A stretch of DNA of 64,000 nt, from contig JBAZKE010000001.1 of the NCBI GenBank assembly GCA_041650915.1, forward strand, positions 43,694 through 107,693, in the 5' to 3' direction. Made by a program: the position numbers and the translations under genes. Of this stretch, positions 7,606 through 58,188 are shown in pieces. Positions within the stretch are counted from its first letter, which is position 1. Every line of letters begins with the position of its first letter. The stretch is from Patescibacteria group bacterium. GTDB lineage: Bacteria; Patescibacteriota; Patescibacteriia; UBA10025; JAHIVO01. The notes under the pieces are model-generated. The model saw only the letters and a list, made by a program, of their open reading frames with translations, ran no database searches and was not told the origin of the DNA.

Positions 7606-7634
7606 TTGACATCGCATCAGAGTTTTGTTACACT
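7606..7634 (+). promoter_or_regulatory. candidate sigma70-type promoter for rpoB (TTGACA-17-TACACT)
   Basis: Perfect -35 TTGACA at 7606-7611, a 17-nt spacer, and TACACT at 7629-7634, inside the ~300-nt AT-rich intergenic region upstream of rpoB. Confidence 0.35.
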
Positions 7635-7764
7635 CCATAGCACTATATTCCTAAGTGGAAAACGTCTAAACATTTTAATGACGTTGTCGAACAATAAATT
7701 AGGTCACTAAGTTTTTTTATTTTTCGCGCTCTTATCCTAGCTGGGATTGAGAGAGGGTTTTTTT

Positions 7765-21082: not shown

Positions 21083-21114
21083 GGCATAGCCACTACTTCA
21101 GCAGCAATGGAGCA

Positions 21115-21150
21115 CGTCCGCCAGGTTTACCAGGCGGACGTTTTTTATTT
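21115..21150 (+). terminator. rho-independent terminator after plsX (CGTCCGCC-loop-GGCGGACG + TTTTTTATTT)
   Basis: 8-bp GC-rich stem at 21115-21122 / 21133-21140 with a 10-nt loop and an immediately following T-run. Confidence 0.6.
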
Positions 21151-21152
21151 AC

Positions 21153-21181
21153 TAGACAAGGGTACCATAATGTGATATAAT
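21153..21181 (+). promoter_or_regulatory. candidate promoter of the giant gene: TAGACA-17-TGaTATAAT (extended -10)
   Basis: Perfect -10 TATAAT at 21176-21181 preceded by TGa, with a -35-like TAGACA at 21153-21158. Followed by a 66-nt GT-rich leader containing hairpin GTTAGG/CCTAAC (21202-21224). Confidence 0.45.
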
Positions 21182-21247
21182 ACCTTTGTTAAGTTTGGTA
21201 AGTTAGGTTTGGTTTTTGCCTAACGTAAGCGCAGATAGCTAATTACC

Positions 21248-24200
21248 GTGGCGCTTTCAAAGCCATTCAAGAGAGCGGGTCAGTTCCTCGGGGGGAATAA
21301 GAATAAACAGGGAATTGACTTTAATGCACTGCCGGAGCTCCTCACCTTGGATCAGGTGAGTGAGATTCTTGGTGTCCATCCCAATACGCTCCGCAACTGG
21401 GATCGTTCCGGCAAGTTTGCCGCGCTCCGTGTCGGCCCGCGAAAAGACCGCCGCTACGAGAAAGAGGCTGTCTATAGGATGCACCTGGAGATGAAACCAG
21501 CGGTCCATGCAGCAGATCGGGAGGTCGATGGGCGCAAACCGGAGCCATCAGACAATAAGTACGTCATCCATCCCGGATTCTCGTGGAACAAGTTGCGGCT
21601 CTACTTCATGAGCCGCCGCTTTTCGATATTCGTATATTCGGTAGGGCTCGTCGCTTTCACCTTCGTGGTGATGCAGGTGACTTTTTTTGCGTACGTTTTC
21701 TTAGTCCGCGCCGAAGAGAAGCCTCCGCTCGTCGCCCGGCTCGCCCCATCGGCGGTGACCGGCTGGCAGGGTGCGGAAAAAGCGAAGACAATCGATGCAC
21801 TGGGCACGGCGCCGCTTGATGATTTCAGCATCTACAATTCAGCAGTTTTTTATAATGGTTCTGAGCCGATTGTTGTCGAGGAAGAGGAAGCCGCGGGCAC
21901 TGCCGAACCAGCGCAAGAGGCACCTGCCGAACCTGCGGTCGTGACGCCGCAGGACACCGAGCCCGAACCTGAAGAGCAAGCTCCTACGGAAGAGCCGCAA
22001 GCTCCTGCGGATGTTCCCGCAGAGGAGGCGGAAGAGCCGGTTGATGCATCCGCTATGCCTGCCGAAGAAGGCGAGGCGCCTGCTGTTGAGGAAGGGCTGC
22101 CTGCCGAAGCTGGCGTTGACGGGGGAGCGGCCACAGATGCCGCTGTTCCTGCAACGGAGGAGGCGGTGACCGATGAATCCGACGCGACGGTCGTGAAGGG
22201 CATGGTACTCGGCGAAGAGACGGATGCTGCAGACGAGCCGCTGTCGGAGCAGAATCCGGTGCTCGAGGCTCGGTCATTCGCGGTACCGGAAGCTATTCCC
22301 GCTGGCACGCAGATCAGTGATGCGCGGCTCCTGCTGTCTTTTGCCGCGGATACGTATCCGGACAATGAAGATGTGATTACCTTTTCCTACTCAGTGGACG
22401 GGAGCAGCTGGACCGTGCTCGATTCGCAGGGGCTCATTTCGGATATGAGTAACGGTACGCACGAGGGTTACTGGTCCTTCAGCATCCCCGAACTCCATGT
22501 CATCGATGAAATTGCAGATCTGATTGTACGGGTGGAATACCACGCAGTCGCACCGGTTGAAATGAGCACCGCGTACCTGGACGGCATTGAGCTCGACCTG
22601 ACGCTCGAGGAACCCGATGCGGTTGCCGCGGAGATTATCGAGAGCGTTGAGATAGAAAATGATGTGCTCGATACAGGCGAGGATCCCACGATCAACGTCC
22701 ATATCGAAGAAGAGTCGCCCCTCTCTTTCCTCGGCGCGTCATCACGGCAGCGTACGGTGAAAGACGTCCGGCTGCAGGATCCGAACGGGCGGGAGATTGA
22801 AGCGGTATACACGATTGCCGATGAACAGCAGGGCAGCGTAAAGACGGCAGCGTACACTTTTGATACGGGGGCATTTTCCAAGCCGGGCAAGTATACCGTT
22901 ACCTTGGAGGTTGAACAAAACGGTACGGTCGAGGAGGTTGAACAGGATTTCACCTGGGGCGTTTTGGCCATTAATCCCGATTACGCCATACAGAAGCTCG
23001 GGCAGGAAACGCAGTTTTCCATCGGCGTTCTGGACGATTCAGGCGATATCGTGTGCGACGCGGAAGTCACGCTGGAAATAGTAGATCCCGCCGGCCATGC
23101 CGTTACCCAGTCGACCGTTGACGGCAGGATTACCGTGAGTGACAGCTGCCTGACCAAAGGCGTGTACCAAGGCCCGGATTATTATTCGACCTACACGCCG
23201 CAGATGCCGGGCACGTACCAGCTGCACCTTACCGCAACGCACTACAACGGCACCCGCACCCTGGACAGCGAGTTTGCGGTCGAGGCGAATCCGCGCTTTA
23301 CCGTAAAGCGCACCGGGCCGACCCGCATCTTCCCGTACGTGTACCAGCCGATGCTTCTGGAAGTAACGGCATATGAAGATTTTACCGGCGAGATAACGGA
23401 GATCGTGCCGGGCGTATTTGAAATTGAGGTGCACAATGACGGCGCGATCCGGCCGTTTGACCAGGGAGGGCATATCGACCACCAGATCGTTTGGAAAGCT
23501 TCGTTGAAGGCCGGAGAATCAGCCACGTTCGGGTATTCGTTCAAAACGCCGGAAGAAAGCCCGGCACTGTATATGGCTGGTCCGGCGGCTGTGGGTACCG
23601 TGTGGGACGAAGGCCGGCAGTGGCAGATGGCGATTGACGCGACGTATGTATATCTGCTTTCATCATCAAACAGCGCTCCGGCCGGCTGGTCGTACGTGGA
23701 CACGTACAACAGCAAGTATGTCCGGGGAGCGTCTAGCTTCAGCGGAACGGGCGGCGGCGCTGCAACCCATACGCATACATACAGCGAATCAGTAACTGAT
23801 TCGAGCGTCAATACGGCTGGAATTGTATGCTCACGGCGATGTTTAAGCGTAGCGGGTTTGGGCCATACCCATACGTCAACCGGCAGCACGATAGGGCCTG
23901 AAAACAATGATCCGGCGCATTATACGTACCGGCTCTGGAAGTACGATACAGCTGACGCAACGCCCATGACGATCCCCCAGAATGCGTTTATCTTTTGGAA
24001 AGATAATAGCGCGGATCCATCATCGCCGTGGACCCGTTTTTCCAGCGGCGATGACCGCATGGTCAAGCTTGCGGATAGCCACACCACGGGCGGTTCGACT
24101 ACCCATAAGCATACCATCACCTGGGGCAGCCTCAATGCGACTACGGGCACAAATATTGAAGGTATTCTTGGTGACATATACACCATGACGTCGGCAACTC

Positions 24201-27200
24201 ATACGCATACAGCGCCAACATCGTCATATACGTCTGAAGAGACATTGCTTCCCGAGTATGTGACGCTCGATATTTGGCAGCAGCCGGACGCAACACCGCA
24301 GGCGATCGTGACCGGCACGGTTGCCATGTTTGACGGCACCTTGCCGACCGGGTGGACGGCCATCTCAAATGGTAGCCCGTACCAGAACCGGCTTGTCCGC
24401 GGGTCAACCACTGCGGGATCCCAGGCAGGCAGCGCGACTCATGGTCATGACGATACCGAAGGCACGACTGGCGGGGCAAGTGCACAAGTGAAGCCTGGGG
24501 AAGGTCTTGACGTGCTGACCGCGGCAGAAAACCATACGCATGGTATTCGGTTAGCTGATTTTAGCAGCGGAGACCAAACGCCGCCGTACGTTGACTTTGT
24601 GCTGGCGGAATGCACAACGTGCGCAATAACGACGATTACAGCAGGCGGGATCGCGTACCAGGAGAACGAGTCAACGCCGATCGACGGCACGTCAGACAAT
24701 AAAACCATCACCCTGCTGGTCAACGGTGCAAATACGGCATGCGGCGGCGGAGCGTGCACGGATACGATCGACGATGACACCGGAGCCTGGTCAATCAGCA
24801 ACATCACGTCATCGAGCGGAGATATTATCACCGTATACCTTGATGATGAGACTGAGGAGGCAACGACTGTATTTGTATCGGACGATACGACTCAGAGCAA
24901 CGTTGATCTGTACCAGAATGCGGTAGTAGTTCGGCACGACACGGGCGCTTCGATTACCAATGCGAACTTGTTAACCGGCGACGGCGGGGATGATGACATC
25001 AAATATAGCGTTACCGGCGGGGCACTGTCGGTGGATACCGGATTTGAGCTGCACGTGTGGGCGGGCGATACGTATGATCCAGGCGGCGCGGTGACGACGC
25101 AGGGAACCGGCGGAGACGTGCATGTTGACGATAATGCCACTATGTATATTGATACGATTGATTCGCGGATTACCAACAATATCATGATCGATTCGGGTGC
25201 AGCACTGACCGTACAGGTAAATTCGCAAGTTGATGGCGGCGCTGCCGGCGGCGTTACAGTGGCAGGCACCCTGAATGCATCGGGCGGTACGTTTACGGTC
25301 GGTGACGGCACGGACGAGGTTGTATACGTGGATAGCGGTACGGTGAACGTGGATGGCGGCATCCTGACTATTAAGGATGATTTGTATAATAATTCGGCAG
25401 GCGGCACTGAAGATATCAATATCTCGAGCGGCACGGTGAATGTGGGCGACGATTTCCGGGTCGAGAGCACGGCGGACGTTGACGTGACCGGCGGCACGGT
25501 GAACGTGACCGGCATGCTGGATGTCAATGGAGGTACGTTCGACACGTCTGGTTCATCCGACGTAAACGTGACTGAAATACTGGACCAGGATGGCGGTACG
25601 GTGACGTTTGGCGGCACGTCGACCGTTGATTTTGGGGGAGTTGCTAATGCCGTTAATGACGGAGCCCTTAACCAGACCGGCGGTACGGTGACGTTCGGCA
25701 ACAGTACTGATGAGGATTTGTACGCAAATGCCGGTGCCACAATCACGCTTTCCGGCGGTACGACCGAGATCAAAGATGATTTTTTCCTACCGTCCGTAAC
25801 CGGTTCGGCAACCGTGAGCAATACAGTGAATATGACGGCAGGTTCAAATGAAACCATTGACCTGGACGGCGGCACCCTGACCGTCTATGAAGGAGCTGAT
25901 ATTAATTGTGATTACCGGCTGGATGTGCGCGCCGCAAGCATCGTTGACCTGAACGGCGGCAGCCTGGATACCGGGAATTACTGGCTTATTTACGATGGCA
26001 CGCTCAATCTGGACGGCGGGGACCATAATATCGGCACGTCTGGGTACCTGTATTTTTTACCGAACGCGACGAGCATCACGTTTAACCAGACGGGCGGGCA
26101 AATCACCACCTATCGGCTCTTTGTGGGCAACGGAGCCGGAACCATGTATACCCCGACCGTAACGGGGGGCACGATCAATATCGGGACAGCAGCAGGAACA
26201 AAGGATATTTATTTTACCGAGGCAGGGGATTATAAGTTTTATAACGTCACGATCGAGGAAAATGCCGTTTTCAATACGAGTTCAACTAATTCGCTAAAAC
26301 TCGCCGGATCGTTCACGATCAATAACGGCAAGACGTTTGGCGCAAACGCAGAGGCGATCCAGATCGAGGGCGATAATGCCGGGTCCCCGACCGGCGGGTT
26401 CATCAACGAGGGCACGTTTACGTACGGAACGAGCACCGTCACCATGCTGAACGGCGAGATAAAAGGAAGCCCTGATGTTATGCTCACTTGGAGCAGCTTT
26501 TATAACCTGAATATCGGCGACGCTACCACGTCGAATACGATTGACGTGGGCGGCTCCAATAACTTTTGGGTCCAGAACGCATTTGCCATTACTTCCGGCG
26601 ATGCGCTGTCGATCGGTTCGGGCCTGTATGCCGGGCATTCCGGGCCGACATTTACGCTCGATGGCACGGTGAGCGGTGACGGCACGCTCGCATTTGATTC
26701 CGCCTCCCCCGGTCCGGGCACCGGCGGCACACTGAGCGCAAACGTCCGGTATGATACCACTGCGGGCAATATTGCGGCCGCAACATTTGACGCCCGCACG
26801 TACGGCGGCGATGTTGATATATACCTGGGTGAACTGGTCATCGGTGCAAAGAGCGCTATCGCCGGAGCGGGCACGCTCGCGATAGGCGGCGGCCTGACTC
26901 TTACCGATGAAAGCGCGGAGGGGTTAAGCTTGGACATGAACACGAACGATCCGACGACAACGGTCGCGGGCAGCGTTACGGTCTGTGCAACGTGCACGCT
27001 CAGCGCGCCGAGTACGGTGAGTGATACCGCATTCATCGTCAATGGTAGCTGGGCCAATAGCGGCACGTTTACCGCAAACGGAGGCCAGGTTACGCTCGAC
27101 GGATCCGCTACCCAGACGCTGTCCGGTACCATGTCCGGAGCGTCTTCGTTTGCAAACCTGAAAATCCGGGACGCTTCAGCGCGCACGGTTGATTTCGAGG

Positions 27201-30200
27201 CGCAGGCAATCACCACCGGCACCTACACTATCGAAAATGACACCAATGCTACCACGGTGCAGTATGAGAATGTCGCCGACAGCGCGCCATTCACCTTTGC
27301 GGACATATCCTGGGGCCAGGCTGGCACCAACGGCATCACGTTTGCAGGAGAATCAGGCTCGTCCGAATGGCACCTGAAAGTGACTGACGCATCGCAGGCA
27401 GTGAGCTACGTGTCCGTATCATGGTCAGATGCGAGCGTTACCGACGGCCTGGAAATAGCCGCGTCGGACGGCACCAATACGGACGGCAACAACAATACCA
27501 ACTGGGATTTCGGGTTTACCATATCCGGCACGTCAACCAGCTTTGGCACGGTAAAAGTCGCGGTTAATACTACCGTACAGACCGACAGCGCCGTCATATC
27601 GGGCGGCACATGGCAGATCACGGCTGATGCGGATCCGATTTCCGGGGATGTTATTACGGCGTACATTGACGGAGTGGACGATAGCCTTGAAGCAGTTGGC
27701 GTAACGAAGTATGACGGCACTGGGACCATCAGCGGCATGGTGCTGAATGGATATGAAGTTTGGTTTGGGAGCACCAGTGATACTCCGAGCTTGACCCTGA
27801 CAGACCTCGAGAACTGGGATTACGACAATGATGAAGACGTATTCTTTTCAGTTGCATCGAGCACGCTTGAGATGAACGGCGATTCAGCCCATTCGCTCAA
27901 CGTACTGCAGATCATGGATAACGCGACGCTCACCTTGAGCACAGGGCAGACACTGAATGTTACCGAACTTTTTGTCAGGAGCGACGTTACGGACGGCCAT
28001 CTGACCATGAGCGGATCGCCCATCATCAATGTAAAAGAATTGTTTAATAATGCGGGCGATTATAACGCTTCCACCGAAACGGTCAACATGGCAAATACCA
28101 TGATCGGCTATATTACCGCGGCAGGCGCGTCTGACAGCGATATTTATAACCTCAACATCAGCCCGACGAGCGGCCTATTAACGGTCAGCTTAAACTCGGC
28201 GCTGGTGGTGAATAACGCGCTGACGGTTACTGCCGGCACATTTGCGGTTGACGAAAACCTGAACGTGAACGGTGCAGAAAATGCGTTAACAGTTTCGGGC
28301 GGTACGCTGAGCCATACTGCCGGCACGCTCACGGTTGGCAATAGCACTAACGAAGATTTGTATATTACGAGCGGTGTAGTAACCACGAGCGGCGGCAACC
28401 TTGTCGTGACGGATGACATCCGCCATGCGGGTGGCACGGTGAATATCAATGACGGGTCCAATGTGGACGTAACAGGCCAGTATACCAATGACCTGGCCGG
28501 CTCGCCGATCCTGAACCTGAATGGCGGCAGCATGGACTGCCAGAGCCACATTCTGCTTGACCGCGGAACCGTAAATCTCAACGGCGGCGTGCACCGGGCA
28601 GGCGTGGCGGTTACGGACGGCATTATCGAGATGAACCGGAACAGCACCAAGAGCGAGCATTTTTATTTCAACATGACGGGCGGCGAGCTGCACGGACGGG
28701 CAATCGTCATATATGACAATAAAACGCTTCACACGGATACGGTGTCAGGCGGCCAGTTGTGGGTCGACAATATTTCGGAAATTACCGCTACCGAGGAATT
28801 TTACCAGTGGAACACGGACAGTCCGACATTCTGGAGTCTGGTGCTGAACGAAGACGACGCGAGGATCAACAGCACGTCGCAGATTACCGACCTCAACGGC
28901 GACCTCATCATCAACAGCAGCATGGGCTTGTACCAGCAGGGCCGGGAAATCAAGGTGGCGGGTAATTGGACGCATAACGGTACCACGTATTCGCACGGCA
29001 ATGGAACTGTCCATATGGATGGAGTTGACAGCACAGGATCCATTAACGGCACTACTGCATCGACATTTTATAACCTGTACCTTGAGGACAATACGAGTTT
29101 ATCCAATGGGAATGTAACGGTCGAGTATGTGTTGCTTTTACTTGGAGGAATTGATTTTTCCATCGGGTCTGGCAGGACGGCAACTGTTACGTCTGCCGGT
29201 GGCATGACGGGCCTGACCGGATCTACGGTGAGCGGCGACGGCACGTTGATATTTCAAGCGCCTACGTTAACCGGGCCGGCCCCTGCCATTGATAGTCTGC
29301 TTCGCATGGATGCGGTTGATACGGACCAGAGCATCGAGAGCGGCCCGACCAGAAATTTCGGAAGTACGGTCGAGTTTTACAACAGCGGCGCGAGCTCGCG
29401 CACGATTACGATCGGCAGCGGCGCTGACCAGACGTTCAATTTTTACGGCGATGCCACGTCCACGGTCACCGGCGGCGGCACGCTCTCGGTCAGGCAGGAT
29501 ACCTATAATCCAATTGTCAATATCGTCGGTGATTTTACGATCGGCGCGAGCAGTACGTACATTGCCTCAGCTACGGGCGCACTCAACCTTAGTGGCAGTT
29601 ACACGAATACCGGCGCTTTTACCCACAGCAGCGGCACGGTGACGCTCAACGGGACAGCGTTGCAAACCTTGAGCGGGACTATGACTGGTGCGAGTTCATT
29701 TAATAGCCTCACTATTACCAATGCATACGGTAGTGTTTCTGGGTGTGATACGCTGTTCTCGCCGGGAGTTTCATTTGGTACATCGGCGACAATCGCCGGG
29801 ACGTATACAATTACGACAGCAGGGGTTAACGTCCGCTACAATTCCGGGTCTACGTATACCGTAAATAATATTAATTGGCAGGGCGGAGCAGGCGATGAAA
29901 TTATTTTCCGCAATTCAAACCTCACGTCGGGTACGTGGCTTCTTGCTGTATCCGGGACGCAGACGAACGTCTCGTATGTCAATGCCGCACGGTCAGACGC
30001 CTCATCGGGAGACGTGATCGACGCTTCGAACGGCACAAATACTGATTGTGATAATAATACCAACTGGGATTTTTACGCGGGGATACTCGTGACCGGCACG
30101 CTCGGGTTTTCTCCGGCAGCCGGCACGGTAAAAGTAGCGGTTGACGGTGACGTGCAGACTGACGGCTATGACGTGACCGGCGGCAGCCCGTGGGAGGTGT

Positions 30201-50383: not shown

Positions 50384-50393
50384 TGGTTTCCTC

Positions 50394-50422
50394 TTGTTTT
50401 TACCGACGAACTGTGTTATAAT
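50394..50422 (+). promoter_or_regulatory. candidate promoter for the 345-aa gene / downstream operon (TTGTTT-17-TGtTATAAT)
   Basis: Perfect -10 TATAAT at 50417-50422 with extended TGt and a weak -35, in the 155-nt AT-rich gap after the giant gene. Confidence 0.35.
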
Positions 50423-50538
50423 AGGTAATGTAAAGTAGAAAGCGGCTGTTTATATTTTTTTAAAGAGGAAAAGATTTTTCATTTTTGTGTTGGCATCTTT
50501 CGACATATAAAATTATTTATTAAAGTTACGAAAAGCCT

Positions 50539-51576
50539 ATGAAAGTACTAAAAAACACTAGTGTGGTGGTGTTGATGGCGGCATTTATCGCTGTCATGCT
50601 CTTTCCGGTCCAGGCAGCATACGCGGGTACCCTCACCACACCGCGCGATTACCTGAACAGGGTTAAGGAGAGTTTAACCTCCGGTGTGCAGCACGAGGTG
50701 TTCTTCACTACCGAGGGGGCAGTTTCAGGAGGAGCAGGGAACAACGAGATTACGCTCGTCTTCCCGGATGCGGATGACGGCGGCTGGTGCGCCACCGCAG
50801 CAGCCGACATGACGGTCACCGGCATTACGGATCCGACAGGCGGTTCCGAGAGCGCAACGTCGCTCCCCGGCACACTCGTCGGTACGTGTACGCAGGGTGC
50901 AGGCGCTTCGAGCTACGACACCTTCACAATCACCGGGGTCAATGATCTCAGCTCGGCTACGAAGTACGGCGTCCGTATCGCGGATGGCACAACGGCAGAG
51001 CTCGGTACGCCGGCTGCGTCGACGACGGGTCTCATCACCATTACCACAAACAACGGCTCAACTGACGTTGACTCTGCATTTACGAGCGTCGATATCATCA
51101 GCGATGACCAGGTGGCTGTTTCCGCCGATGTCCCATCGAGCATTACTTTCACGCTCAGCGATACCACGATCGACCTTGGCACGCTCTCAACGGGCGCGGT
51201 CAGCACTTCGTCACATACCGTCCAGACCGTCACCAATGCGTCGAGCGGCTACACGACGCTCGTCTACGACGACGGCAACCTCAGGAAGGGTTCCGACGAT
51301 ATCAACGACGTGGCTGACGGTGCCGTGACGGCAGGTTCGGAAGAGTACGGCCTCTCGACCACGGACAGCAGCCAGGACATTGCCCAGGATGCGGCCTGCG
51401 GCAGCGCTCCGTACACCGCATCCGCACTCACCGCGACCCAGCAGTCAGTCGCAGGAGCTGCCTCCGGTCCGGTGGATGAAACGATCACGGTCTGCTATGC
51501 AGCCTCGATCAGCGCAAGCACGGTAGCGGGCGCATACGCGCATACGGTTACATACGTAACGGTCGGGTTATTCTAA
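50539..51576 (+). CDS. secreted 345-aa protein sharing the C-terminal ~140-aa domain of the giant protein (possible divergent WxL-like cell-surface domain)
   Basis: N-terminal signal peptide (MKVLKNTSVVVLMAAFIAVMLFPVQAAYAG). The C-terminal 140 aa are near-identical to the giant protein's C-terminus (IDLGTLSTGAVSTSSHTV...TVTYVTVGLF). Confidence 0.8.
   Translation: MKVLKNTSVVVLMAAFIAVMLFPVQAAYAGTLTTPRDYLNRVKESLTSGVQHEVFFTTEGAVSGGAGNNEITLVFPDADDGGWCATAAADMTVTGITDPTGGSESATSLPGTLVGTCTQGAGASSYDTFTITGVNDLSSATKYGVRIADGTTAELGTPAASTTGLITITTNNGSTDVDSAFTSVDIISDDQVAVSADVPSSITFTLSDTTIDLGTLSTGAVSTSSHTVQTVTNASSGYTTLVYDDGNLRKGSDDINDVADGAVTAGSEEYGLSTTDSSQDIAQDAACGSAPYTASALTATQQSVAGAASGPVDETITVCYAASISASTVAGAYAHTVTYVTVGLF
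51244..51510 (+). repeat. 267-nt perfect direct repeat, copy 2 (3' part of the 345-aa gene)
   Basis: See copy 1. Confidence 0.9.
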
Positions 51577-51610
51577 TAACAGTTACTACCTCCTTCGCGG
51601 GCAATTTCAT

Positions 51611-52558: not shown

Positions 52559-52612
52559 GCACGCATTAACAATGGCGGTCGGCAACCGTATGGTCGCCTG
52601 ATCGCCGAGCCT

Positions 52613-53608
52613 ATGAAAAAGAAGCTACTATACATACTAGCATTCACCCTCGCGGTACTGTTTACCGCCAGTACGTTTCCCGCGCAGCGTGCGGACGCAA
52701 TCACCCTCATCCCGCCGATTCTTGAATTTGGCCTCATCCCCGGCGAGCCATCGAAGATAGCGATCAAGCTCTTCAATGAATCATCAAGTACCGTAGAGCT
52801 GTATACGGAAGCGCACAACTTCAGTGCCAAGGATGATACCGGACAGCCGCAGTTTGATTTCGAGAGCGATGCGGATGGCATAAGCTCCTGGATCGACATG
52901 GAGGAGGGCCCAATCATCATCGAGCCGAACGGCCGGTATGAGGTGCCGGTGACGATCAATCCGCCGTCAGAGGCGGATCCAGGCGGGCACTACGCAGCCG
53001 TTTTTTTCTCGACGACTCCACCCGAAGAGGGCCAGGTCAGGATTGCCTCGAAAGTCGGGACGCTCATCCTGGCAAAGGTTGCCGGTGACGTAGAGGAGGA
53101 CGGTTCGATCGTAGAGTTCGACGTTGTCGACGGCAAACGGTTTTTCAATCGCCTCCCCGCTGCATTTGAAGCGCGGTTTGAAAATACCGGCAATGTGCAC
53201 CTCCGGCCGGCTGGGACGATCGTTATCGAAAATTTTTTCGGACAGCAGACCGATGAGGTCGATTTCAATCCGAGCGGCGGTGCAACGCTTCCGGATACGA
53301 CGCGCCGGTATGAAGCAATATGGGAAAAGGGGCAGGTCGGCGATACTGCAGGCAACGTGTGGACGAGTTTTTGGAAAGAATACGTAAACGAGAAGAATAA
53401 TTTTGCGATCGGCAGGTATACGGCGGCGATCTCTATTGAAGCGGGCACTGACAACGGCGTTACGGATGCCGCTTCAGTCTCGTTTTGGATCTTTCCGTGG
53501 CGTGTCGTACTCGTTTGGGCGGTAGCCGCTGCACTCGCCGTTATACTGCTCATCTACTTCCTCAGGCGCTACAACGCTTGGATCGTCAAGAAAGCCCGGG
53601 GAAAATAA
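52613..53608 (+). CDS. tail-anchored cell-surface protein, paralog B
   Basis: 331 aa. Signal peptide MKKKLLYILAFTLAVLFTASTFPAQRADA. Shares FSAKDDTGQPQFDFES...DPGGHYAAVFF with paralog A. C-terminal TM then RRYNAWIVKKARGK. Confidence 0.8.
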   Translation: MKKKLLYILAFTLAVLFTASTFPAQRADAITLIPPILEFGLIPGEPSKIAIKLFNESSSTVELYTEAHNFSAKDDTGQPQFDFESDADGISSWIDMEEGPIIIEPNGRYEVPVTINPPSEADPGGHYAAVFFSTTPPEEGQVRIASKVGTLILAKVAGDVEEDGSIVEFDVVDGKRFFNRLPAAFEARFENTGNVHLRPAGTIVIENFFGQQTDEVDFNPSGGATLPDTTRRYEAIWEKGQVGDTAGNVWTSFWKEYVNEKNNFAIGRYTAAISIEAGTDNGVTDAASVSFWIFPWRVVLVWAVAAALAVILLIYFLRRYNAWIVKKARGK

Positions 53609-53621
53609 TACCCATACGAAC

Positions 53622-54521
53622 GTGCGTCGTTTTTTGAAACTGCGGACAGTATTAATCTGGGGTATCCCGTTGATCGTGCTGATCGCGGGATATTCTGTTG
53701 TGTGCGCGCAAGTTTCACGCCAGGTTACGGTAACGGCGACTGTTCCGGAGCAGCCGCCCCTCGAGCCGCCCGATACGACCGTTCAGTTCAGCGGCATAGC
53801 GTACCCATCCTCTACGGTAACGATTACGCAGGATTCGGTGCCGATATCCATCATTACCGCCACAGCCCAGGCGGGTTTTCAGGTATCCATTATTGTCGAT
53901 CCGGGCACCCATACGTTTACAGTGTACGGCATCGACGTGGACGGGGTTCAGGGGCGCGTATCCAGCTTTACGCTGCTCCTTTCGGAGGGCAGCACGACTA
54001 CCATCAGCGGAATTTTTCTCGGCCCGACGATTACGACTGACCAGACGACCATTACTTCGGGAGAGACCGTGACGCTCTCCGGTACGACGGCACCGGACAG
54101 CGAGGTGAACGTTACCCTGACTTCGCCTGCCGTCGGTGCGGCAGCCGGAGAGGCGAAGATTGCCGTGCACATTGCGAGCGCAGACGGTAACGGCCGCTGG
54201 CTGCAGCTCTTCAATGCTGATGACCTCGTCGAGGGCAGCCACTCCGCAAAGGCGCAGGCGACCGATCCGGTTACGAGTTCGGTTTCCGAGTTTAGCAATG
54301 AGGTTGTTTTTGAGGTGGTCGCAGCTGAAGAGCCTGATGCGTGTGCCGGCATGGCCCCCGGCGATATCAACTGTGACGGTTCAGTCAACTTAGTCGACTT
54401 CAGCATCCTGCTCTTCTACTGGAACGCGGCAAATCCGGCAAATCCGAGAGCTGATATCAATAGTGACGGTACCGTCGATATAATCGACTTCAGCATTATG
54501 CTCTACTATTGGACGGGATAA
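53622..54521 (+). CDS. secreted protein with Ig-like repeats and C-terminal dockerin (two Ca-binding EF-hand-like repeats)
   Basis: 299 aa from a GTG start. Signal peptide with a ...VVCAQ site. The C-terminus has two dockerin repeats, DINCDGSVNLVDFSILLFYW and DINSDGTVDIIDFSIMLYYW, with D/N at loop positions 1, 3, 5 and 12. Confidence 0.7.
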   Translation: MRRFLKLRTVLIWGIPLIVLIAGYSVVCAQVSRQVTVTATVPEQPPLEPPDTTVQFSGIAYPSSTVTITQDSVPISIITATAQAGFQVSIIVDPGTHTFTVYGIDVDGVQGRVSSFTLLLSEGSTTTISGIFLGPTITTDQTTITSGETVTLSGTTAPDSEVNVTLTSPAVGAAAGEAKIAVHIASADGNGRWLQLFNADDLVEGSHSAKAQATDPVTSSVSEFSNEVVFEVVAAEEPDACAGMAPGDINCDGSVNLVDFSILLFYWNAANPANPRADINSDGTVDIIDFSIMLYYWTG

Positions 54522-54525
54522 AACC

Positions 54526-55668
54526 ATGCATTTTTTACGGCATACAATTTTTCTATCAGTTTCAGTGCTGCTCGGAGCGGTTCTATTCGGGCAGTCTGCT
54601 GACGCTGCCGTGATTTCGTTCGATCCGTCGGGCGGGGAGCTTTCGCTGAATGAGGAATTTCTGGTAACCCTGCACCTCAACAGCGAACAGGAGGTTATCA
54701 ATGCAGTCGACATTACGCTCACGTATCCTGCTTCCGCACTCGAGGTCATTGATGTTTCTCGGGGAGGTTCTTTCCTGACGCTGTGGGTCGAGGATCCCGT
54801 CGTCGACGATACGGCGGGTACGATAACGTTTGCGGGGGGCATTCCGAATGGCAGCCTCGTCGCGGATGGCGTTATTGCGACTGTGATTTTCAGGTCGAAT
54901 GCGCCGGGAGGGGTAGAGATCGGCGTTGATACGGAAGCGACCAAGGTTTTGCTCAACGATGGGAGGGGAACCCAAGCGGCGCTGTCGGCGGAGCCAAGCG
55001 TTTTTACCATATCGTCGTTGTCGTTTGTGGCGATTACCTCACCGACGCATCCGGATGAGAATGCCTGGTACCGCGAGAATGATTTTACTGCAGAGTGGGC
55101 AACCACTGCCGGCGCTGAATACAGCTATACGGTGAGCGCCCGATCCGATACGGTGCCCGATGACAGCAGGGACATTACCGACGGCAGCGCTACCTTTTTC
55201 AGTTTGCCCGACGGCATCCACTATTTTATTCTGAAGGAGCGGCTTCCCCACAAGGATTGGCGCATCATCGGCAAGCGGCGCGTCATGGTTGATTCGACTC
55301 CGCCGCTGCCGTTCACCGCGGAAATCGTAAAGGAGCGCACGCTGTACGGCGGCAAGTCGATCGTCACCTTCACTGCCCAGGACTTCACATCCGGCATCGC
55401 ACGGTATGATATTGCTGAGAATGATGCGATAACGCAGGACGTAACCTCGCCGTACATACTCAAGGACCAGTCACTCAGCCAGGCGGTTATCCTCTGGGCC
55501 GTTGACCGCGCGGGCAATACAACAGAGTTCTCATTTGGCGGGCACGGCAGCACGCCGGGGGGAAGCTCTGGCGATCCTATTGATATTCTCGTATACGTAT
55601 TTGCCGGCTGCATGTTTCTGCTCCTCGTGCTGGTCGCGGTACGATGGCGAATAAAAAAGAAAGCGTAA
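54526..55668 (+). CDS. cohesin-domain protein with Ig/FN3-like second domain and C-terminal TM anchor
   Basis: 380 aa. Signal peptide. N-terminal ~140-aa cohesin-like module (VINAVDITLTYPASALEVIDVSRG...GTITFAGG...DGVIATVIFRS). Middle domain paralogous to the next protein. C-terminal hydrophobic helix + RIKKKA. Confidence 0.7.
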   Translation: MHFLRHTIFLSVSVLLGAVLFGQSADAAVISFDPSGGELSLNEEFLVTLHLNSEQEVINAVDITLTYPASALEVIDVSRGGSFLTLWVEDPVVDDTAGTITFAGGIPNGSLVADGVIATVIFRSNAPGGVEIGVDTEATKVLLNDGRGTQAALSAEPSVFTISSLSFVAITSPTHPDENAWYRENDFTAEWATTAGAEYSYTVSARSDTVPDDSRDITDGSATFFSLPDGIHYFILKERLPHKDWRIIGKRRVMVDSTPPLPFTAEIVKERTLYGGKSIVTFTAQDFTSGIARYDIAENDAITQDVTSPYILKDQSLSQAVILWAVDRAGNTTEFSFGGHGSTPGGSSGDPIDILVYVFAGCMFLLLVLVAVRWRIKKKA

Positions 55669-55677
55669 CATGGCACT

Positions 55678-58188
55678 ATGGTACGACGGCTCCTCGCAAT
55701 AAGCTTCATCTCCGCTATACTGCTGGTAGCCGTACCTGCAGCCGCCGATGCAGCATCGCTCTACCTCAGCCCATCGAGCGGAACGTACACGGTCGGCGGC
55801 AGCTTTAGCGTTACCGTCGCGGTAGATACCGGCGGCGTCGCGATCAATTCGGCGCAGGCGACTGTTTCGTTCCCGAATGATATCCTCGAGATTACCAGCG
55901 TCGGGCAAGCTGGCATCTTTACGCTGTGGCCGATCAGCCCGACGTACTCGAATGCGACCGGCACCGTATCGTTCGCAGGAGGCGTTCCGAATCCGGGCTA
56001 TACGGGTTCTGGCGGCACGATTATTACGGTTACGTTTGCAACAAAGGTAGCAGGCACTGCCACCGTCACGATGGGCTCGGCGAGCATTCTCGCAAACGAC
56101 GGGCTCGGGACAAATATCCTGACCGGCGCAAGCGGCGGGACCTATACGGTCAGAGCAGCAGCCGTGGAACCAGAGCCGGAACCTGAACCAGAGCCAGATT
56201 TACAGTTCCCTGAAGCGGTGACGATCACGTCATCCTCGCATCCGGAACAGTCACTGTGGTACTCAAACCGGGATCCGCAGTTCGCGTGGAACCGCCAGGA
56301 TGGCGTTGTCGGATTCAGCTATGCGCTCGATGATCAGGATGGCGGTACGGTTGACCAAGTCCGAGATACGACCGATACGACGGGCAGCTTCGCAGGAATT
56401 GGCGACGGCATTTGGTACTTTCACGTACGTGCGCAAAATAATGACGGATGGGGCCCCGTTGCACAGTATAAAATTCTTGTCGACGGCACTCCGCCGCTCC
56501 CGTTTGAGATTGAATTGCTCGACGGCAAGCAGACGGAGGATAGGACGCCCCAGGTGAGTTTTGAAGCCACCGATGAGCATTCGGGCGTGCACCACTATGT
56601 TTTAGTCATCAATAACGAACCGCCGATCAGCATCGATGTCGGCGCCACGGCACCGTACACTTTGCCGGAACTCGCCGAAGGCAAGCACGGCATAACGGTG
56701 TACGCATACGATTTTGCGTCAAACAGTACCGCGGCATTTGCTACCTTCACGATCGGGGAGCCTCCCGGTCCGGTTGTTGTTGACGATGGCGAGGAGGAGG
56801 CGGAGACCCCCGCTGCAGTTCGGGCTATCGACGATGCGTTAAGGTCGATTGAAGAGGCGCTCCCGCAATCAGTGAAGGAGCTTATTGGCAATATTGGAGA
56901 TGTCATCGGCAATTTACGGGACAATGCTACCGTCAGTACCATCGTCAATGACTTCGTCGAACCGGCGGTTGTCACGACGGCTATCGTTACTTCTGCCGGC
57001 CTCATCGCGACCGCGTCTGCATTCCAGATTACCAATCTCGCGTACCTCTTCCTCCGGTTCAGCTACTTCTGGGTTGCTCCGGTACACCTCGGCCGGCGCC
57101 GCAGGAGGCCGTGGGGGATCGTATTCGACAGTACGACGGGAATGCCGGTCGCCCGCGCTATCGTGCGGATATTTTCCCGGGAGTTTAATAAGCTCAAGGA
57201 GAGCCAAATTACAGACGAAGAGGGCCGCTTTGGGTTTCTTATCGAGCCGGATCAGTATTACCTTGCCGTTTCCCGCTCCGGCTATATTTTTCCTTCCCAT
57301 CTCCTGCGGAGCGTGGCAATCAGCCAGTATGAGGACATATACCGGGGCGACACCATCACGGTCACCAAGCAAAATATGGGTGGTCTCTCGATCAACGTGC
57401 CGATCGATCCGAACGTACGGACTGTTTCGCAGACACGTTTGCTGTGGCTGCGGGTGATCAACTTCCTCGGCTTTATGCTGGAGAAGTTCAGCTTACCGCT
57501 GCTTATTGCCGGTACGCTGCTGAGCTGGGTCACCCTCGTGCTGGAACCGAAGACGAGCAACTATGTCATTCTCCTCCTGTACGGTATTTTTATCTTCCTC
57601 AAGTATATGGTGCAGCAGCTGCTCGAGCGCTCATGGGGTTTTGTTGAGGATGACACCACCGGCGATCCCGTCGATCTCGCCATTATCCGCATCTACAATA
57701 CGGCATCCGGCCTCCTCATCGGTACCCGGGTCACGAACCAGCGGGGACAGTTTACCGCGCTCGTGCCTCCGGGGCAGTACTACATCGTAGCCGTGAAACC
57801 GGGGTACGAGGTGTTCAGGAGCAAACCGATGATGGTATCGAAGCGCAAAGGCCTCATCAGGCTCAGGGTTAAGCTCAAGCCGCAGACGAAGAAGCCGGAC
57901 ACGACCGTGGCGCTTGAGGAGGTCGTTACGCTCGAGGCGGCTGATACGACCGTATCCGAAGCGCCTGTATCACCGAAGAAACGGGGGAAGGGGCAGCAGC
58001 CTGTACAGGCGGAGGCAGAGGAACAGCCCGCAAAACCCTCCCGGAGCATGAAGAAAGAAACGGCTGCTCGGAGGGGAGCCCAGCCGCTGAAGAAACCGAC
58101 TAAGCGCCCGCCGGCGGGCAGCCCGCCGGGCACTCCAAAAACGCCGTCGGTTGACGACCTCGGTAATTTGGATAGCCAGGGCTCTTAG
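55678..58188 (+). CDS. cohesin-domain membrane protein with two CarboxypepD_reg-like (prealbumin-fold) domains interleaved with TM helices and a Lys-rich C-terminal tail
   Basis: 836 aa. Signal peptide. Cohesin-like module (VAINSAQATVSFPNDILEITSVGQAG...GTVSFAGG). Ig-like domain paralogous to the 380-aa protein. Two repeats of W G(I/F)V(F/E)D..TG.PV..A(I)(V/I)RI(F/Y)...G.....T...G.F......Y. Several hydrophobic helices. Basic/Pro-rich tail. Confidence 0.7.
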   Translation: MVRRLLAISFISAILLVAVPAAADAASLYLSPSSGTYTVGGSFSVTVAVDTGGVAINSAQATVSFPNDILEITSVGQAGIFTLWPISPTYSNATGTVSFAGGVPNPGYTGSGGTIITVTFATKVAGTATVTMGSASILANDGLGTNILTGASGGTYTVRAAAVEPEPEPEPEPDLQFPEAVTITSSSHPEQSLWYSNRDPQFAWNRQDGVVGFSYALDDQDGGTVDQVRDTTDTTGSFAGIGDGIWYFHVRAQNNDGWGPVAQYKILVDGTPPLPFEIELLDGKQTEDRTPQVSFEATDEHSGVHHYVLVINNEPPISIDVGATAPYTLPELAEGKHGITVYAYDFASNSTAAFATFTIGEPPGPVVVDDGEEEAETPAAVRAIDDALRSIEEALPQSVKELIGNIGDVIGNLRDNATVSTIVNDFVEPAVVTTAIVTSAGLIATASAFQITNLAYLFLRFSYFWVAPVHLGRRRRRPWGIVFDSTTGMPVARAIVRIFSREFNKLKESQITDEEGRFGFLIEPDQYYLAVSRSGYIFPSHLLRSVAISQYEDIYRGDTITVTKQNMGGLSINVPIDPNVRTVSQTRLLWLRVINFLGFMLEKFSLPLLIAGTLLSWVTLVLEPKTSNYVILLLYGIFIFLKYMVQQLLERSWGFVEDDTTGDPVDLAIIRIYNTASGLLIGTRVTNQRGQFTALVPPGQYYIVAVKPGYEVFRSKPMMVSKRKGLIRLRVKLKPQTKKPDTTVALEEVVTLEAADTTVSEAPVSPKKRGKGQQPVQAEAEEQPAKPSRSMKKETAARRGAQPLKKPTKRPPAGSPPGTPKTPSVDDLGNLDSQGS

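Follow-up and report, generated by a model that had tools for sequence, protein, structure and literature searches.

A predicted divergent Pam-type pilus with a giant tip fibre in a Patescibacteria bacterium

We propose that a seven-gene surface-protein cluster of an ultrasmall bacterium of the Patescibacteria (CPR), made up of a giant open reading frame (ORF) followed by genes g2 to g7, encodes a divergent and elaborated Pam-type pilus with a giant tip and a cohesin-dockerin base, a reading to which we assign a probability of about 0.6. Pam pili are sortase-free, usher-free donor-strand-exchange pili of Patescibacteria, and their pilins polymerise, as seen by cryo-EM (bioRxiv 10.64898/2026.03.03.709456). 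The earlier note on this DNA could not assign the locus to a described system, a statement since overtaken, as its core appears to be a divergent Pam pilus (same preprint; NCBIfam NF058581). The products of the cluster probably serve long-range attachment, either to a host cell or to a substrate.

The cluster, its limits and its conservation

Within the window (the whole stretch of 64,000 nucleotides that was analysed), all of the genes lie, by a re-check of the ORF list, where they had been placed before:

21114..21150, plus strand: terminator-like hairpin and T-run, read off the sequence, with a 9-bp perfect stem ACGTCCGCC/GGCGGACGT (21114-21141)
21153..21181, plus: promoter-like site TAGACA-17-TATAAT with extended TG, a consensus match only (11/12 positions)
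21248..50383, plus: giant gene, predicted pilus tip fibre, 9,711 aa
50390..50422, plus: candidate internal promoter TTGTTT-17-TGtTATAAT, below the scanner's -35 threshold and speculative
50539..51576, plus: g2, predicted Pam-type shaft pilin, 345 aa
51611..52558, plus: g3, predicted membrane-anchored pilus chaperone, PamC/D-like and DUF916/WxLIP-like (architecture, hhalign)
52613..53608, plus: g4, paralogue of g3 (38.5% identity; same family evidence)
53622..54521, plus: g5, predicted pilus terminator and anchor adaptor
54526..55668, plus: g6, membrane anchor (Pfam Cohesin, hydropathy, NCBIfam)
55678..58188, plus: g7, second membrane anchor (paralogy to g6, hydropathy, Pfam)

The limits formerly drawn around the cluster stand. 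Upstream, the hairpin with its T-run closes the plsX unit and is followed by the promoter-like site; it went unreported by the consensus scanner because its loop exceeds the 8 nt up to which hairpin loops are considered. Downstream, murI (58185-59000) is convergent with the cluster. The candidate internal promoter lies in the AT-rich gap of 155 nt upstream of g2. The absence of secretion ATPases, sortases and glycosyltransferases holds for the scanned ORFs of the window, but in relatives a GT2 gene and a signal peptidase S26 gene are found directly 3' of the cluster.

The suggestion that these genes form a conserved surface-fibre cluster, with components that should co-occur elsewhere, is borne out: the cluster is chromosomally encoded, and its synteny extends to more than 20 species of Patescibacteria, with 21 species-level loci surveyed. 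A gene of the g3/g4 family follows g2 in 19/19 loci with downstream sequence, and a second protein with the same C-domain end precedes g2 in 20/20 loci with upstream sequence, 15 of these 20 proteins being beta-helix giants; in loci devoid of a giant, its position is occupied by acceptor-only proteins of PamT size, possessing ordinary signal peptides. A dockerin protein and two to three cohesin proteins, g6 orthologues among them, are encoded in 14 loci. In two loci (L019 and L025) the dockerin protein consists of a full g2 N-domain, the linker and the dockerin. At one locus (L014) a giant is present and the 4 kb downstream encode neither dockerin nor cohesin; at another (L031) both of these occur and the giant is missing.

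The giant protein

The giant is built of an HTH_17 leader, a transmembrane (TM)/signal core, an acidic-Pro linker, an Ig-like region, a beta-helix array and an acceptor domain, in this order:

21338..21472, plus: helix-turn-helix of HTH_17/MerR-excisionase type, predicted cytoplasmic, aa 31-75 (Pfam HTH_17)
21617..21712, plus: lone hydrophobic segment, aa 124-155, ending V-R-A, then E-E (hydropathy)
22235..25147, plus: Ig-like/beta-sandwich region, aa ~330-1300 (weak profile matches, internal repeat)
25145..49942, plus: right-handed parallel beta-helix array, aa ~1300-9565 (repeat map, modelling)
49943..50380, plus: Pam-pilin-type acceptor domain, aa 9566-9711 (NCBIfam CPR_Pam_pilin_C, E 1.6e-10)

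It is almost certain that this ORF is no artefact of assembly or gene calling, a possibility that the earlier note had raised, and that the highly repetitive sequence, the source in a metagenome-assembled genome and the length of the next longest homologue listed (6,677 aa) might seem to favour. Over 29,136 nt it has 0 in-frame stops, versus ~415 expected from shuffles, with 178-687 stops in each of the other five frames, and GC by codon position is uniform, GC3 exceeding GC2 along the entire ORF as in the neighbouring genes. Identity among internal DNA repeats does not exceed 74%, making a collapsed or expanded repeat unlikely, and orthologous giants of 2,250-6,677 aa, with the same N- and C-termini, are present in many independent assemblies, one of them a single-cell genome.

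The leader scores 28.8 bits against Pfam HTH_17 (cutoff 27) and matches Gp37 (PDB 4j2n, E 8e-5), and at least 25 representative giants carry it N-terminally; such conservation of a cytoplasmic HTH argues for a leader function of its own. The Pam C-domain terminates 18 of the 22 long proteins whose N-terminus is of the HTH-TM kind. Hydropathy agrees with the TM anchor described earlier and gives one segment, at aa 124-155, which is predicted to be a signal anchor or the core of a signal peptide, Ala155 being the last residue before a candidate signal-peptidase site. The motif at the end of this segment, [VIL]-x-A then [EGD], is conserved in 13 homologues, and at the corresponding position the giant of locus L022 bears a plain signal peptide. 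If left uncleaved, the TM would tether the giant by its N-terminus, a misfit with a simple tip position.

The Ig-like region shows weak matches to Filamin, MG2 and WxLIP_HBD (Pfam) and to TIGR03769 (NCBIfam), along with an internal repeat (aa 800-1026 versus 914-1136), and cleavage of the leader would make it the distal end. The array that follows holds more than 30 copies of the modA/modB repeat, of 25-55% identity, interrupted by eight modS domains of ~114 aa (starting at nt 24677, 27503, 30065, 32744, 34988, 38138, 40697 and 45800). The tail-collar-like repeats noted previously have no match in Pfam, and none of their matches to viral structures is convincing (best TM-score 0.23), and the supposed phage-fibre-like module is, as modelled, a generic right-handed beta-helix, the fold of tailspikes and of many bacterial adhesins alike.

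The shared pilin domain, the chaperone-like proteins and the anchors

A common Pam-pilin C-terminal domain, a truncated Ig of the strand-acceptor type, closes both the giant and g2; that the two share a C-terminal domain had been recognized in the earlier note. The two spans (9566-9711 in the giant, 200-345 in g2) share 86% identity and are reflected in a 300-nt DNA repeat of 91% identity, and the giant C-terminus matches positions 200-345 of the g2-family HMM at E 9e-47. In five of five genomes the giant C-domain is nearer to the g2 of its own genome (86, 82, 70, 66 and 57% identity) than to other giants (68, 68, 59, 46 and 46%).

As to g2, it has the two-domain Pam pilin architecture, which has been described for PamA and PamB (bioRxiv 10.64898/2026.03.03.709456), with a signal peptide, a nine-strand beta-sandwich N-domain, a linker and the truncated-Ig C-domain; both the nine strands and the Ig-like C-terminal domain are present in the AF2 model (pLDDT 93.9), and cysteines pair as 84/117 and 287/319. 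The CPR_Pam_pilin_C profile matches g2 (E 2.2e-11) with 44.1 bits and the giant with 41.3, below the curated cutoff of 55 bits, and by the NCBIfam rule the two are therefore not called Pam pilins; it matches 61 of the 71 members of the g2 family (best E 1.8e-20), and the PamT profile matches 19 of them (best E 8.8e-18). The shared domain was also considered as a WxL domain, and this was ruled out (Pfam WxL 0/71, hhalign probability 0.3%, no Trp). The WxL/Csc-like logic claimed for the locus fails in this respect, while it is upheld by the gene layout (PMC10599100) and by g3/g4, whose family aligns with a DUF916 protein of Clavibacter (hhalign 98.9%, E 4e-17).

The strand that would fill the acceptor groove is predicted in two of the proteins:

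51103..51135, plus: g2 linker DDQVAVSADVP, aa 189-199, predicted donor strand (alternating hydrophobic residues, family-conserved)
53718-53747, plus: g5 donor-strand motif RQVTVTATVP, aa 33-42 (A39 and V41 invariant in 11 orthologues)

This motif is conserved in g2 (where the linker is not a regular strand in the AF2 monomer model), follows directly on the signal peptide in every g5 orthologue, and is absent from 14/14 giants, in all of which the beta-helix cap, ...DCWDF, leads straight into the C-domain, with no intervening donor or linker strand. With ~10 residues the motif is too short for profile statistics, and in the 52,298 aa of six-frame ORFs from the window it turns up nowhere but in g2, g5 and a single junk ORF, with ~0.1 expected. 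By sequence, giants would possess an acceptor domain and no donor strand, g2 both, and g5 the donor-strand motif without an acceptor, a logic that suggests an order of tip, shaft and base.

Both g3 and g4 have a signal peptide and a C-terminal TM, in agreement with the tail anchors proposed earlier; g3 has two Ig-like domains, and g4 carries an insertion of ~30 aa in the second domain. They belong to a family of TM-anchored two-Ig proteins of pam-like operons that are also DUF916/WxLIP homologues. Their full-length homologue P0168 of Saccharimonadia (hhalign 99.96%, E 9e-39) comes from a pam-like operon that also encodes a PamR-like protein (E 6e-60) and two proteins resembling Pam pilins. The assignment as chaperones is based on architecture and on this one operon, and the likeness to PamC/PamD (signal peptide, two Ig domains, C-terminal TM) on comparison by description.

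The dockerin protein and the two cohesin membrane proteins previously named are also recovered. Protein g5 is composed of a signal peptide, the donor-strand motif, a Pro-rich spacer, Ig-like domains and the dockerin:

54357-54500, plus: g5 type I dockerin, aa 246-293 (Pfam Dockerin_1, E 6e-9; 36.3 bits, cutoff 22.9)

Both g6 and g7 bear cohesins with membrane anchors. In g6, a signal peptide, a cohesin (aa 43-128; 26.6 bits, Pfam cutoff 24.1), an Ig-like/OmpL47-type domain and a C-terminal TM (aa 349-377) follow one another, and the N-terminal 365 aa of g7, which are cohesin-like, are paralogous to g6 (E 6e-38); beyond these are several TM segments, two CarboxypepD_reg domains (Pfam) and a Lys/Pro-rich tail, this half being kept in the closest relatives only.

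Proposed assembly and alternative readings

In the proposed scheme every product would be exported via Sec, and the membrane-tethered chaperones g3/g4 would act as caps over the open grooves of the acceptor domains. Having an acceptor domain and no donor strand, the giant could only be placed at the distal tip, a role proposed for PamT, which it would exceed by ~9,400 residues, its beta-helix forming a fibre roughly 100-200 nm long. Subunits of g2 would join beneath, each inserting its linker strand into the preceding groove, and g5, with a strand copy at its mature N-terminus and no groove to offer, would for this reason end the growth of the pilus. The g5 dockerin would then plug into the g6/g7 cohesins, fixing the fibre to the membrane in the place of PamR, of which a homologue was searched for and none is present. 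With the giant distal, its HTH-TM leader would have to be cut, probably after Ala155, between V-R-A and E-E, and the HTH-TM stub would be left in the membrane. We infer that g2 polymerises, that assembly proceeds in this order, that the leader is cleaved and that the dockerin pairs with the cohesins; PamA-E, PamC/D and PamR of M. amalyticus were likened by their published description. Compared to the preprint, the giant tip, the anchoring by cohesin and dockerin, and the HTH_17 leader preceding a TM that resembles a signal peptide are additions.

A static display of the WxL/Csc type, with no pilus, in which g3/g4, as WxLIP-like anchors that stay permanently in the membrane, would hold the C-domains of the giant and of a non-polymerising g2 on the cell surface by strand insertion, the dockerin-cohesin pair displaying g5 independently, we regard as unlikely. 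It is in line with the homology of g3/g4 to DUF916/WxLIP-type proteins, with two chaperone-like paralogues for two clients, matched in the closest relatives, and with the definition of WxL clusters, in which a TM-anchored two-Ig protein accompanies a big and a small protein that have a C-domain in common; stable binding of WxL by WxLIP, through beta-hairpin insertion, has been proposed (PMC10599100). However, the shared domain is that of Pam pilins, which polymerise, and not WxL, and neither the copy of the g2 linker motif in g5, a protein lacking an acceptor domain, nor the g2 N-domain and linker in the dockerin proteins of L019 and L025 would be explained. It is improbable, in our view, that the leader stays uncleaved and keeps the giant fixed N-terminally in the membrane, as a base or an arch with a RodZ-like topology, its cytoplasmic HTH binding DNA or a partner, its distal C-domain nucleating a g2 chain, and the dockerin end binding cohesins of the same or a sibling cell. 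The single TM segment with positive-inside flanks, the well-conserved HTH, above the Pfam cutoff, and a RodZ-like HTH-TM-ectodomain protein encoded in the same genome speak for such a topology, as does the fact that cleavage at Ala155 is itself a prediction; against it speak the conserved small-x-Ala motif closing the hydrophobic segment, the ordinary signal peptides that occupy this place in the giant of L022 and in the short PamT-like proteins, and the membrane-proximal growth of donor-strand systems, at TM-anchored chaperones, which puts acceptor-only subunits at the distal end.

Cohesins and dockerins are hallmarks of cellulosomes, and in Southlakia epibiotic growth requires a dockerin protein, for which host glycans have been suggested as the target. 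In a further reading the pair would organise a degradative surface complex against host cell-wall polymers, with the beta-helix as a pectate-lyase or a tailspike-type glycan depolymerase. We consider this very improbable: no catalytic family is recognized in the giant or g5 by Pfam or NCBIfam, the beta-helix fold is equally typical of non-enzymatic adhesins, and the Pam pilin and chaperone components would be left unaccounted for. A depolymerase activity located at the tip would nevertheless be compatible with the pilus model.

The giant gene and its cluster

The seven-gene cluster in the window may represent a distinct class of monoderm pilus, combining a tip pilin fused to a beta-helix, a cohesin-dockerin plug and an HTH_17 stub leader, with the WxL and DUF916 clusters as its relatives; we give this reading about three chances in ten. 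The cluster and its candidate signals are as follows:

21114-21150: hairpin and T-run upstream of the giant, read from the sequence
21153-21181: strong promoter-like site upstream of the giant
21248-50383, forward strand: giant ORF, 9,711 residues
50384-50538: AT-rich spacer between giant and g2, with a candidate internal promoter (extended -10 TGtTATAAT at 50414-50422, weak -35)
50539-51576, forward strand: g2, putative pilin (identical to NCBI protein WC505_00270)
51611-52558 and 52613-53608, forward strand: g3 and g4, paralogous two-Ig-domain proteins
53622-54521, forward strand: g5, dockerin protein
54526-55668 and 55678-58188, forward strand: g6 and g7, cohesin membrane proteins (in g7 by paralogy)

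The giant gene takes up 4.3% of the 679,916-bp contig (about 4% of the coding capacity of the genome), and the earlier note had raised the possibility that it is an assembly artefact. This is ruled out by the absence of stops over 29,136 nt (versus about 415 in shuffles and 178-687 in the five other frames), by codon-position GC similar to that of the neighbouring genes, and by the divergence of the internal repeats, which are at most 74% identical at the DNA level, all indicative of a real gene and not of repeat collapse. Past the 155-nt spacer, the element in which may, as an internal promoter, provide the pilin and anchor genes with an expression level of their own, the six remaining genes follow with gaps of 4-54 nt. 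The closest relatives having names are Candidatus Kerfeldbacteria. Housekeeping genes are found both on the 5' side (metK, Mur ligase, rpoB, rpoC, ftsK, a RodZ-like gene, recA, plsX) and on the 3' side (murI, convergent with g7, then iPGM, HAD hydrolase and phosphomannomutase), and the cluster is therefore chromosomal, without an obvious mobile element. Two further proteins of the window are of note in their own right. One (5008-7467, forward strand; 819 aa) is of an unusually large architecture, its sole recognised domain being a spermidine-synthase fold (aa 530-651). The other (62541-63785, reverse strand; 413 aa) has a signal peptide; its N-half, of Gly/Asp/Ile-rich repeats, looks bactofilin-like by eye, its C-half contains four or five TM segments, and it matches no Pfam family at E<=1e-5.

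Co-occurrence of the components in other genomes was the key test of the system proposed in the earlier note, and it is borne out. The same seven-gene order, between other flanks, accompanies giants of 3,870-6,290 aa in four further genomes, and a reduced core of two proteins with the shared C-domain and one or two g3/g4-like genes is found in Woykebacteria and Dojkabacteria. A profile scan from 17 g2-family sequences, at one genome per species, returned 21 loci, which were scored with profiles. A g3/g4-family gene lies 3' of g2 in 19 of the 19 loci having downstream sequence, and a second shared-C-domain protein lies 5' of g2 in all 20 having upstream sequence (15 beta-helix giants and 5 proteins of 247-636 aa), while a dockerin protein with two or three cohesin membrane proteins is present in 14 loci, almost always with a giant. 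By these counts the cluster is real and conserved. The genes directly 3' of the cluster vary: in the window this is murI, and in three of the loci from other genomes a GT2 glycosyltransferase, a signal peptidase S26 and hisS are found, at the following positions:

L001, 17516-20584
L003, 17645-20636
L007, 18804-21101

For the GT2 and S26 genes an accessory part in the system (glycosylation, leader cleavage) is conceivable, as is mere adjacency. Three other loci (L013, L021, L025) come from records titled 'uncultured Gammaproteobacteria bacterium' that hold the CPR-specific cluster, with g2 43-65% identical, and these bins are probably mislabelled.

The shared C-domain and the Pam pilus

Pfam has no match in the C-domain common to the giant and g2. 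A donor-strand pilus of Patescibacteria (CPR), Pam, has recently been described from cryo-EM of filaments from the parasite Ca. Mycosynbacter amalyticus, and was reported mainly from Saccharimonadia and Microgenomatia (Troman et al., bioRxiv 10.64898/2026.03.03.709456). Its pilins are composed of a nine-strand N-domain and a truncated-Ig C-domain that accepts the linker strand of its neighbour, with paired cysteines; the tip pilin PamT (~240 aa) possesses the C-domain only; PamC and PamD are PapD-like chaperones with a C-terminal TM helix; and the RbmA-like PamR, with an N-terminal strand, two FnIII domains and a TM, is the proposed terminator and anchor (bioRxiv 10.64898/2026.03.03.709456). 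Release 20 of NCBIfam (June 2026) holds CPR-specific models for this pilus (NF058578, NF058579, NF058581). One of these, CPR_Pam_pilin_C (NF058581), aligns end to end (model positions 3-148 of 148) at the C-termini of both g2 (residues 208-345; E 2.2e-11, 44.1 bits) and the giant (extreme C-terminus; E 1.6e-10, 41.3 bits), in each case under the curated cutoff of 55, and it matches 61 of the 71 g2-family members (best E 1.8e-20), with PamT matching 19 of the 71. Homology of the shared domain to Pam pilins is thus clear at the domain level, short of curated membership.

The rest of g2, as modelled, fits the published description of a two-domain Pam pilin point by point. The AF2 model (pLDDT 93.9) is of two beta-sandwich domains, residues 33-185 forming nine strands, 186-201 a conserved stretch without structure and 202-343 the C-domain; the protein has a signal peptide, and its cysteines are at 84/117 and 287/319. 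The family linker, DDQVAVSA[DT]VP, is conserved, with hydrophobic residues alternating. Searches of PDB sequences by profiles of g2 and of g3/g4 returned nothing useful. The terminal 146 residues of the giant are 86% identical to the C-terminus of g2, and in five of five genomes the C-domain of the giant is nearer to the g2 of its own genome than to any other giant, as would follow from a need for the two grooves to take the same strands and chaperones.

The view that the cluster is not assignable to a described system has thus to be given up for its core, which by domain homology (the 61 matching family members) and by architecture belongs with Pam, at scores below the curated cutoffs and with PamR absent. 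Both systems are CPR-restricted and feature a two-domain pilin with paired cysteines, a linker as donor strand (in the cluster a predicted one) and a truncated-Ig acceptor, as well as a subunit that has the acceptor domain only (in the cluster the putative tip) and two-Ig chaperone-like proteins with a C-terminal TM helix; neither has an usher, a sortase or an ATPase, and the parts are Sec-exported and encoded in one operon. The differences are also multiple. The scores under the curated cutoffs place the cluster in a distant subfamily, its lineage is of the Kerfeldbacteria/Parcubacteria type, and it has one pilin gene, versus PamA, PamB and PamE. Its putative tip is a beta-helix protein of 2,000-9,711 aa, versus the ~240-aa PamT, many of the giants carry a cytoplasmic HTH_17 before the signal core, and in place of PamR there are a predicted donor-strand-plus-dockerin adaptor and two to three cohesin membrane proteins. 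None of these differences is mentioned in the description of Pam (bioRxiv 10.64898/2026.03.03.709456). What is new beyond it are the putative giant tip with its HTH leader, the predicted anchoring by cohesin and dockerin, and the lineage, for which no description was found in the literature searched; the Omnitrophota giant-gene preprint and CPR reviews do not describe the cluster.

Chaperone-like and putative anchor proteins, and likeness to other systems

Each of the paralogues g3 and g4 has two Ig-like domains between a signal peptide and a C-terminal TM. Their family aligns over its full length (hhalign, 99.96%, E 9e-39) to P0168, a Saccharimonadia protein from a pam-like operon with one PamR-like gene and two Pam-pilin-like genes; matches to PapD_N and pilus-chaperone models are faint, and the likeness to PamC and PamD is drawn on architecture. 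With DUF916 (PF06030), both g3 (15.3 bits, cutoff 27.3) and g4 stay below the Pfam cutoff, while 7 of 11 family members match the model (best E 2e-5) and three database homologues carry it. By hhalign, the family aligns to a Clavibacter DUF916 protein across both domains and the TM (98.9%, E 4e-17, 252 columns), and to a Listeria WxLIP only locally (84% over 58 columns). A link of the chaperones to DUF916/WxLIP goes unmentioned in the Pam paper (bioRxiv 10.64898/2026.03.03.709456). The connection suggests a common mechanism for the poorly understood WxL surface clusters of lactobacilli, enterococci and Listeria. DUF916-type TM proteins akin to g3/g4 are also found outside CPR:

L008, 5101-6915: Clavibacter plasmid
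L009, 4892-10638: Deinococcus plasmid

Further homologues of this type are found on Streptomyces and Arthrobacter plasmids. The small secreted hypothetical neighbours of these genes match no WxL and no Pam model, and those of Clavibacter, Deinococcus and Listeria were dropped as candidate relatives of g2 and Pam for lack of any signal; these genes and their neighbours may be further unrecognised chaperone-plus-client surface systems.

The remaining genes likely concern anchoring. The type I dockerin of g5 (Dockerin_1, 36.3, cutoff 22.9) has both DxNxDGxV...D Ca-binding repeats intact, g6 has a cohesin (26.6, cutoff 24.1) and a C-terminal TM, and g7 is g6-like over its first 365 aa, from which its cohesin is assigned by paralogy, followed by TM segments and two CarboxypepD_reg domains. 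A type I dockerin and cell-bound cohesins are thus both encoded, and their pairing is predicted. In every g5 orthologue QQVxVTATVP, a copy of the g2 linker motif, is found directly past the signal peptide, followed by a Pro-rich spacer, Ig-like domains and the dockerin, without an acceptor domain; in two lineages the dockerin protein consists of an entire g2 N-domain, linker and dockerin. Profile comparison of g5 with g2 aligned only the signal peptides, the motif being too short. A split PamR was considered for g5 and g6 and is rejected for lack of homology: the PamR model (NF058578) has no match among g2-g7, and the g5 and g6 profiles align to a PamR-like protein at a probability below 1%. 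The cohesin-dockerin module of g5 and g6/g7 thus appears to take over the function of PamR without being PamR in two pieces. The C-terminal half of g7 (aa ~430-836), in which the two transthyretin-like CarboxypepD_reg domains alternate with TM segments before a Lys/Pro/Ala-rich tail, is conserved in none but the nearest relatives, and its place is taken by a third cohesin protein in loci further away.

Several known systems resemble parts of the cluster. Similar in layout are the WxL/Csc clusters of Bacillota (Siezen 2006, PMC1534035; Hassan et al. 2023, PMC10599100), likewise of monoderm envelopes, in which a small and a large protein share a C-terminal domain, a protein of signal peptide, two Ig domains and TM is present (WxLIP; DUF916 plus DUF3324, PF11797), and a strand of the Ig protein is predicted to insert into the domain that the two share. 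The homology of the g3/g4 family to DUF916-annotated proteins explains the WxL/Csc-like logic sensed in the earlier note, and this part of the claim stands, along with the gene layout. The shared domain itself, however, is not a WxL domain: it has neither W-x-L motifs nor any Trp, PF13731 matches 0 of the 71 family members, and hhalign with a WxL protein of Listeria pLM5578 gives 0.3%; the cluster also has no LPXTG protein, and WxL proteins are regarded as surface-displayed, not as polymerising. Chaperone-usher pili (Pap/Fim) present the same donor-strand exchange logic as is proposed for the cluster, with two-Ig-domain chaperones, a shaft subunit having both strand and groove, tip adhesins (FimH, PapG) made of an N-terminal binding part and a C-terminal pilin domain without a donor strand, and a terminator (PapH) that stops growth. 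In contrast, the cluster has no usher and no outer membrane, its putative chaperones are membrane-anchored, its predicted donor strand is an inter-domain linker and not an N-terminal extension (g5 excepted), and no sequence homology is detectable.

The putative anchor module recalls the cellulosomes of Clostridia (SdbA/OlpB-type scaffoldins), with a type I dockerin of two intact Ca-binding repeats, cohesins on cell-bound proteins and a non-covalent plug-and-socket attachment to the envelope. However, the cluster lacks enzymes and carbohydrate-binding modules (no catalytic or CBM family in any of its proteins by Pfam and NCBIfam, and no dockerin-borne carbohydrate-active enzymes for a scaffoldin), its cohesin proteins are held by TM segments and not by SLH domains or sortase, and the bearer of its dockerin is a predicted pilus terminator. 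The giant shares with large adhesins (the autotransporter and TPS passengers VacA, pertactin and EtpA; SRRP and PfbA of Gram-positives) a long right-handed beta-helix as a surface or adhesive rod, and with the Omnitrophota giant genes (bioRxiv 10.1101/2023.11.21.568195) an outsized genome share for one surface protein, but it differs from them in anchoring and export logic, starting with an HTH leader and ending in a Pam acceptor domain, and without a translocator beta-barrel, LPXTG, SecA-like or enzymatic domains. A specific relation to phage fibres, suggested from a tail-collar-like module, is rejected: Pfam finds no Collar (PF07484) or tail-fibre domain in the giant, the best viral match of a BFVD structural search has an E of 5.8e-4 and a probability of 0.57, with TM-score at most 0.23, and the PDB tailspike matches are those of a generic beta-helix, common to bacterial adhesins.

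The giant as a putative tip, and proposed assembly

The giant has the following parts:

aa 31-75: HTH_17/MerR-excisionase-type helix-turn-helix, above the Pfam cutoff
aa 124-155: single hydrophobic segment, followed by an acidic, Pro-rich linker and an Ig-like region
aa ~1300-9565: over 30 divergent copies of beta-strand coil modules, with eight domains of ~114 aa set between them

The nearest solved relative of the HTH is a phage excisionase. The HTH-TM N-terminus opens at least 25 representative giant proteins (2,000-6,700 aa), and 18 of 22 long HTH-TM proteins end in the Pam C-domain. Directly past the hydrophobic segment is a conserved [VIL]-x-Ala, then Glu/Gly/Asp (in the window's giant VRA followed by EE, the break falling after Ala155), with a conserved ...GW...NSA motif downstream, and the giant of locus L022 has a plain signal peptide where others carry the leader. 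On the Ala motif and the L022 giant, cleavage after Ala155 is predicted; the tip model requires it, and it is the least secure step of the model. Proteins at the tip position range across loci from 247 to 9,711 aa, and examples of their genes are:

L022, 261-7649
L023, 342-1994
L024, 5484-6272
L027, 9129-9869
L030, 9019-9804
L031, 7927-9834

Ordinary signal peptides are found on the short forms and on one giant of 2,463 aa, which makes the HTH leader an add-on in many, not all, giants. The RodZ-like protein of the window (17512-18180, forward strand; HTH_25/HTH_19, one TM, Glucodextran_B-type ectodomain) is a second protein with a cytoplasmic HTH, a TM and an extracellular domain, and a precedent for the topology of the leader.

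None of the 14 giants examined has a donor strand before the C-domain, which is joined directly by the beta-helix cap (...DCWDF), and in the whole 64-kb window the linker motif is found only in g2, g5 and one junk antisense ORF. By sequence, giants would thus accept but not donate a strand, the defining trait of a tip subunit. The window lacks a PamT gene apart from the giant, the PamT model matches the giant weakly (E 9e-4), and in giant-less loci PamT-sized acceptor-only proteins with ordinary signal peptides fill the position of the giant. The donor motifs are simply conserved within genomes, and co-variation added no information. From this bookkeeping of donors and acceptors, we propose an order in which the giant would be the distal tip, with g2 below it as the shaft, g5 next and g6/g7 at the membrane. 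The linker strand of g2 would be donated to the truncated-Ig groove of its neighbour, g5, as a donor only, would end polymer growth, and its dockerin would plug into the cohesins of g6 and g7, while the HTH-TM leader of the giant would be removed after Ala155, its stub staying behind. Order, polymerisation, cleavage and binding are all proposals at this point.

Patescibacteria, which live attached to other cells, account for much of bacterial diversity. The recognition of Pam pili dates only from 2026 and from a single cultivated parasite, and the locus appears to present the principle in a different, uncultivated lineage, as a modular one in which a fibre-bearing tip is possible and the anchor is exchangeable for a cohesin-dockerin pair, with a concrete proposed order of subunits (giant, g2, g5, g6/g7). 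If a distinct pilus class is indeed in question, then its tip pilin and beta-helix rod grew by module duplication from ~250 aa to 9,711 aa across lineages, cohesin-dockerin pairing finds its first structural, non-cellulosomal use, as a pilus anchor replacing a dedicated terminator, and each exported fibre leaves a membrane-tethered DNA-binding stub. Such a stub could couple fibre export to gene expression, or hold the 29-kb gene at the translocon, and the presence of an HTH leader on a giant that is secreted may shed light on the export or regulation of very large proteins. From the homology of the Pam chaperone-like family to DUF916/WxLIP, the widespread WxL clusters in Bacillota, like the DUF916 clusters in Actinomycetota and Deinococcota, would be relatives of a chaperone-only donor-strand system. 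The cluster is of interest to specialists of CPR biology and pilus assembly. As to dimensions, ~7,350 beta-helix residues, with ~30 of them to a coil as modelled and a rise of 0.48 nm for each coil, would make a rod of ~120 nm, and the whole fibre, with the inserted and Ig-like domains, would measure roughly 100-200 nm, comparable to the diameter of a CPR cell.
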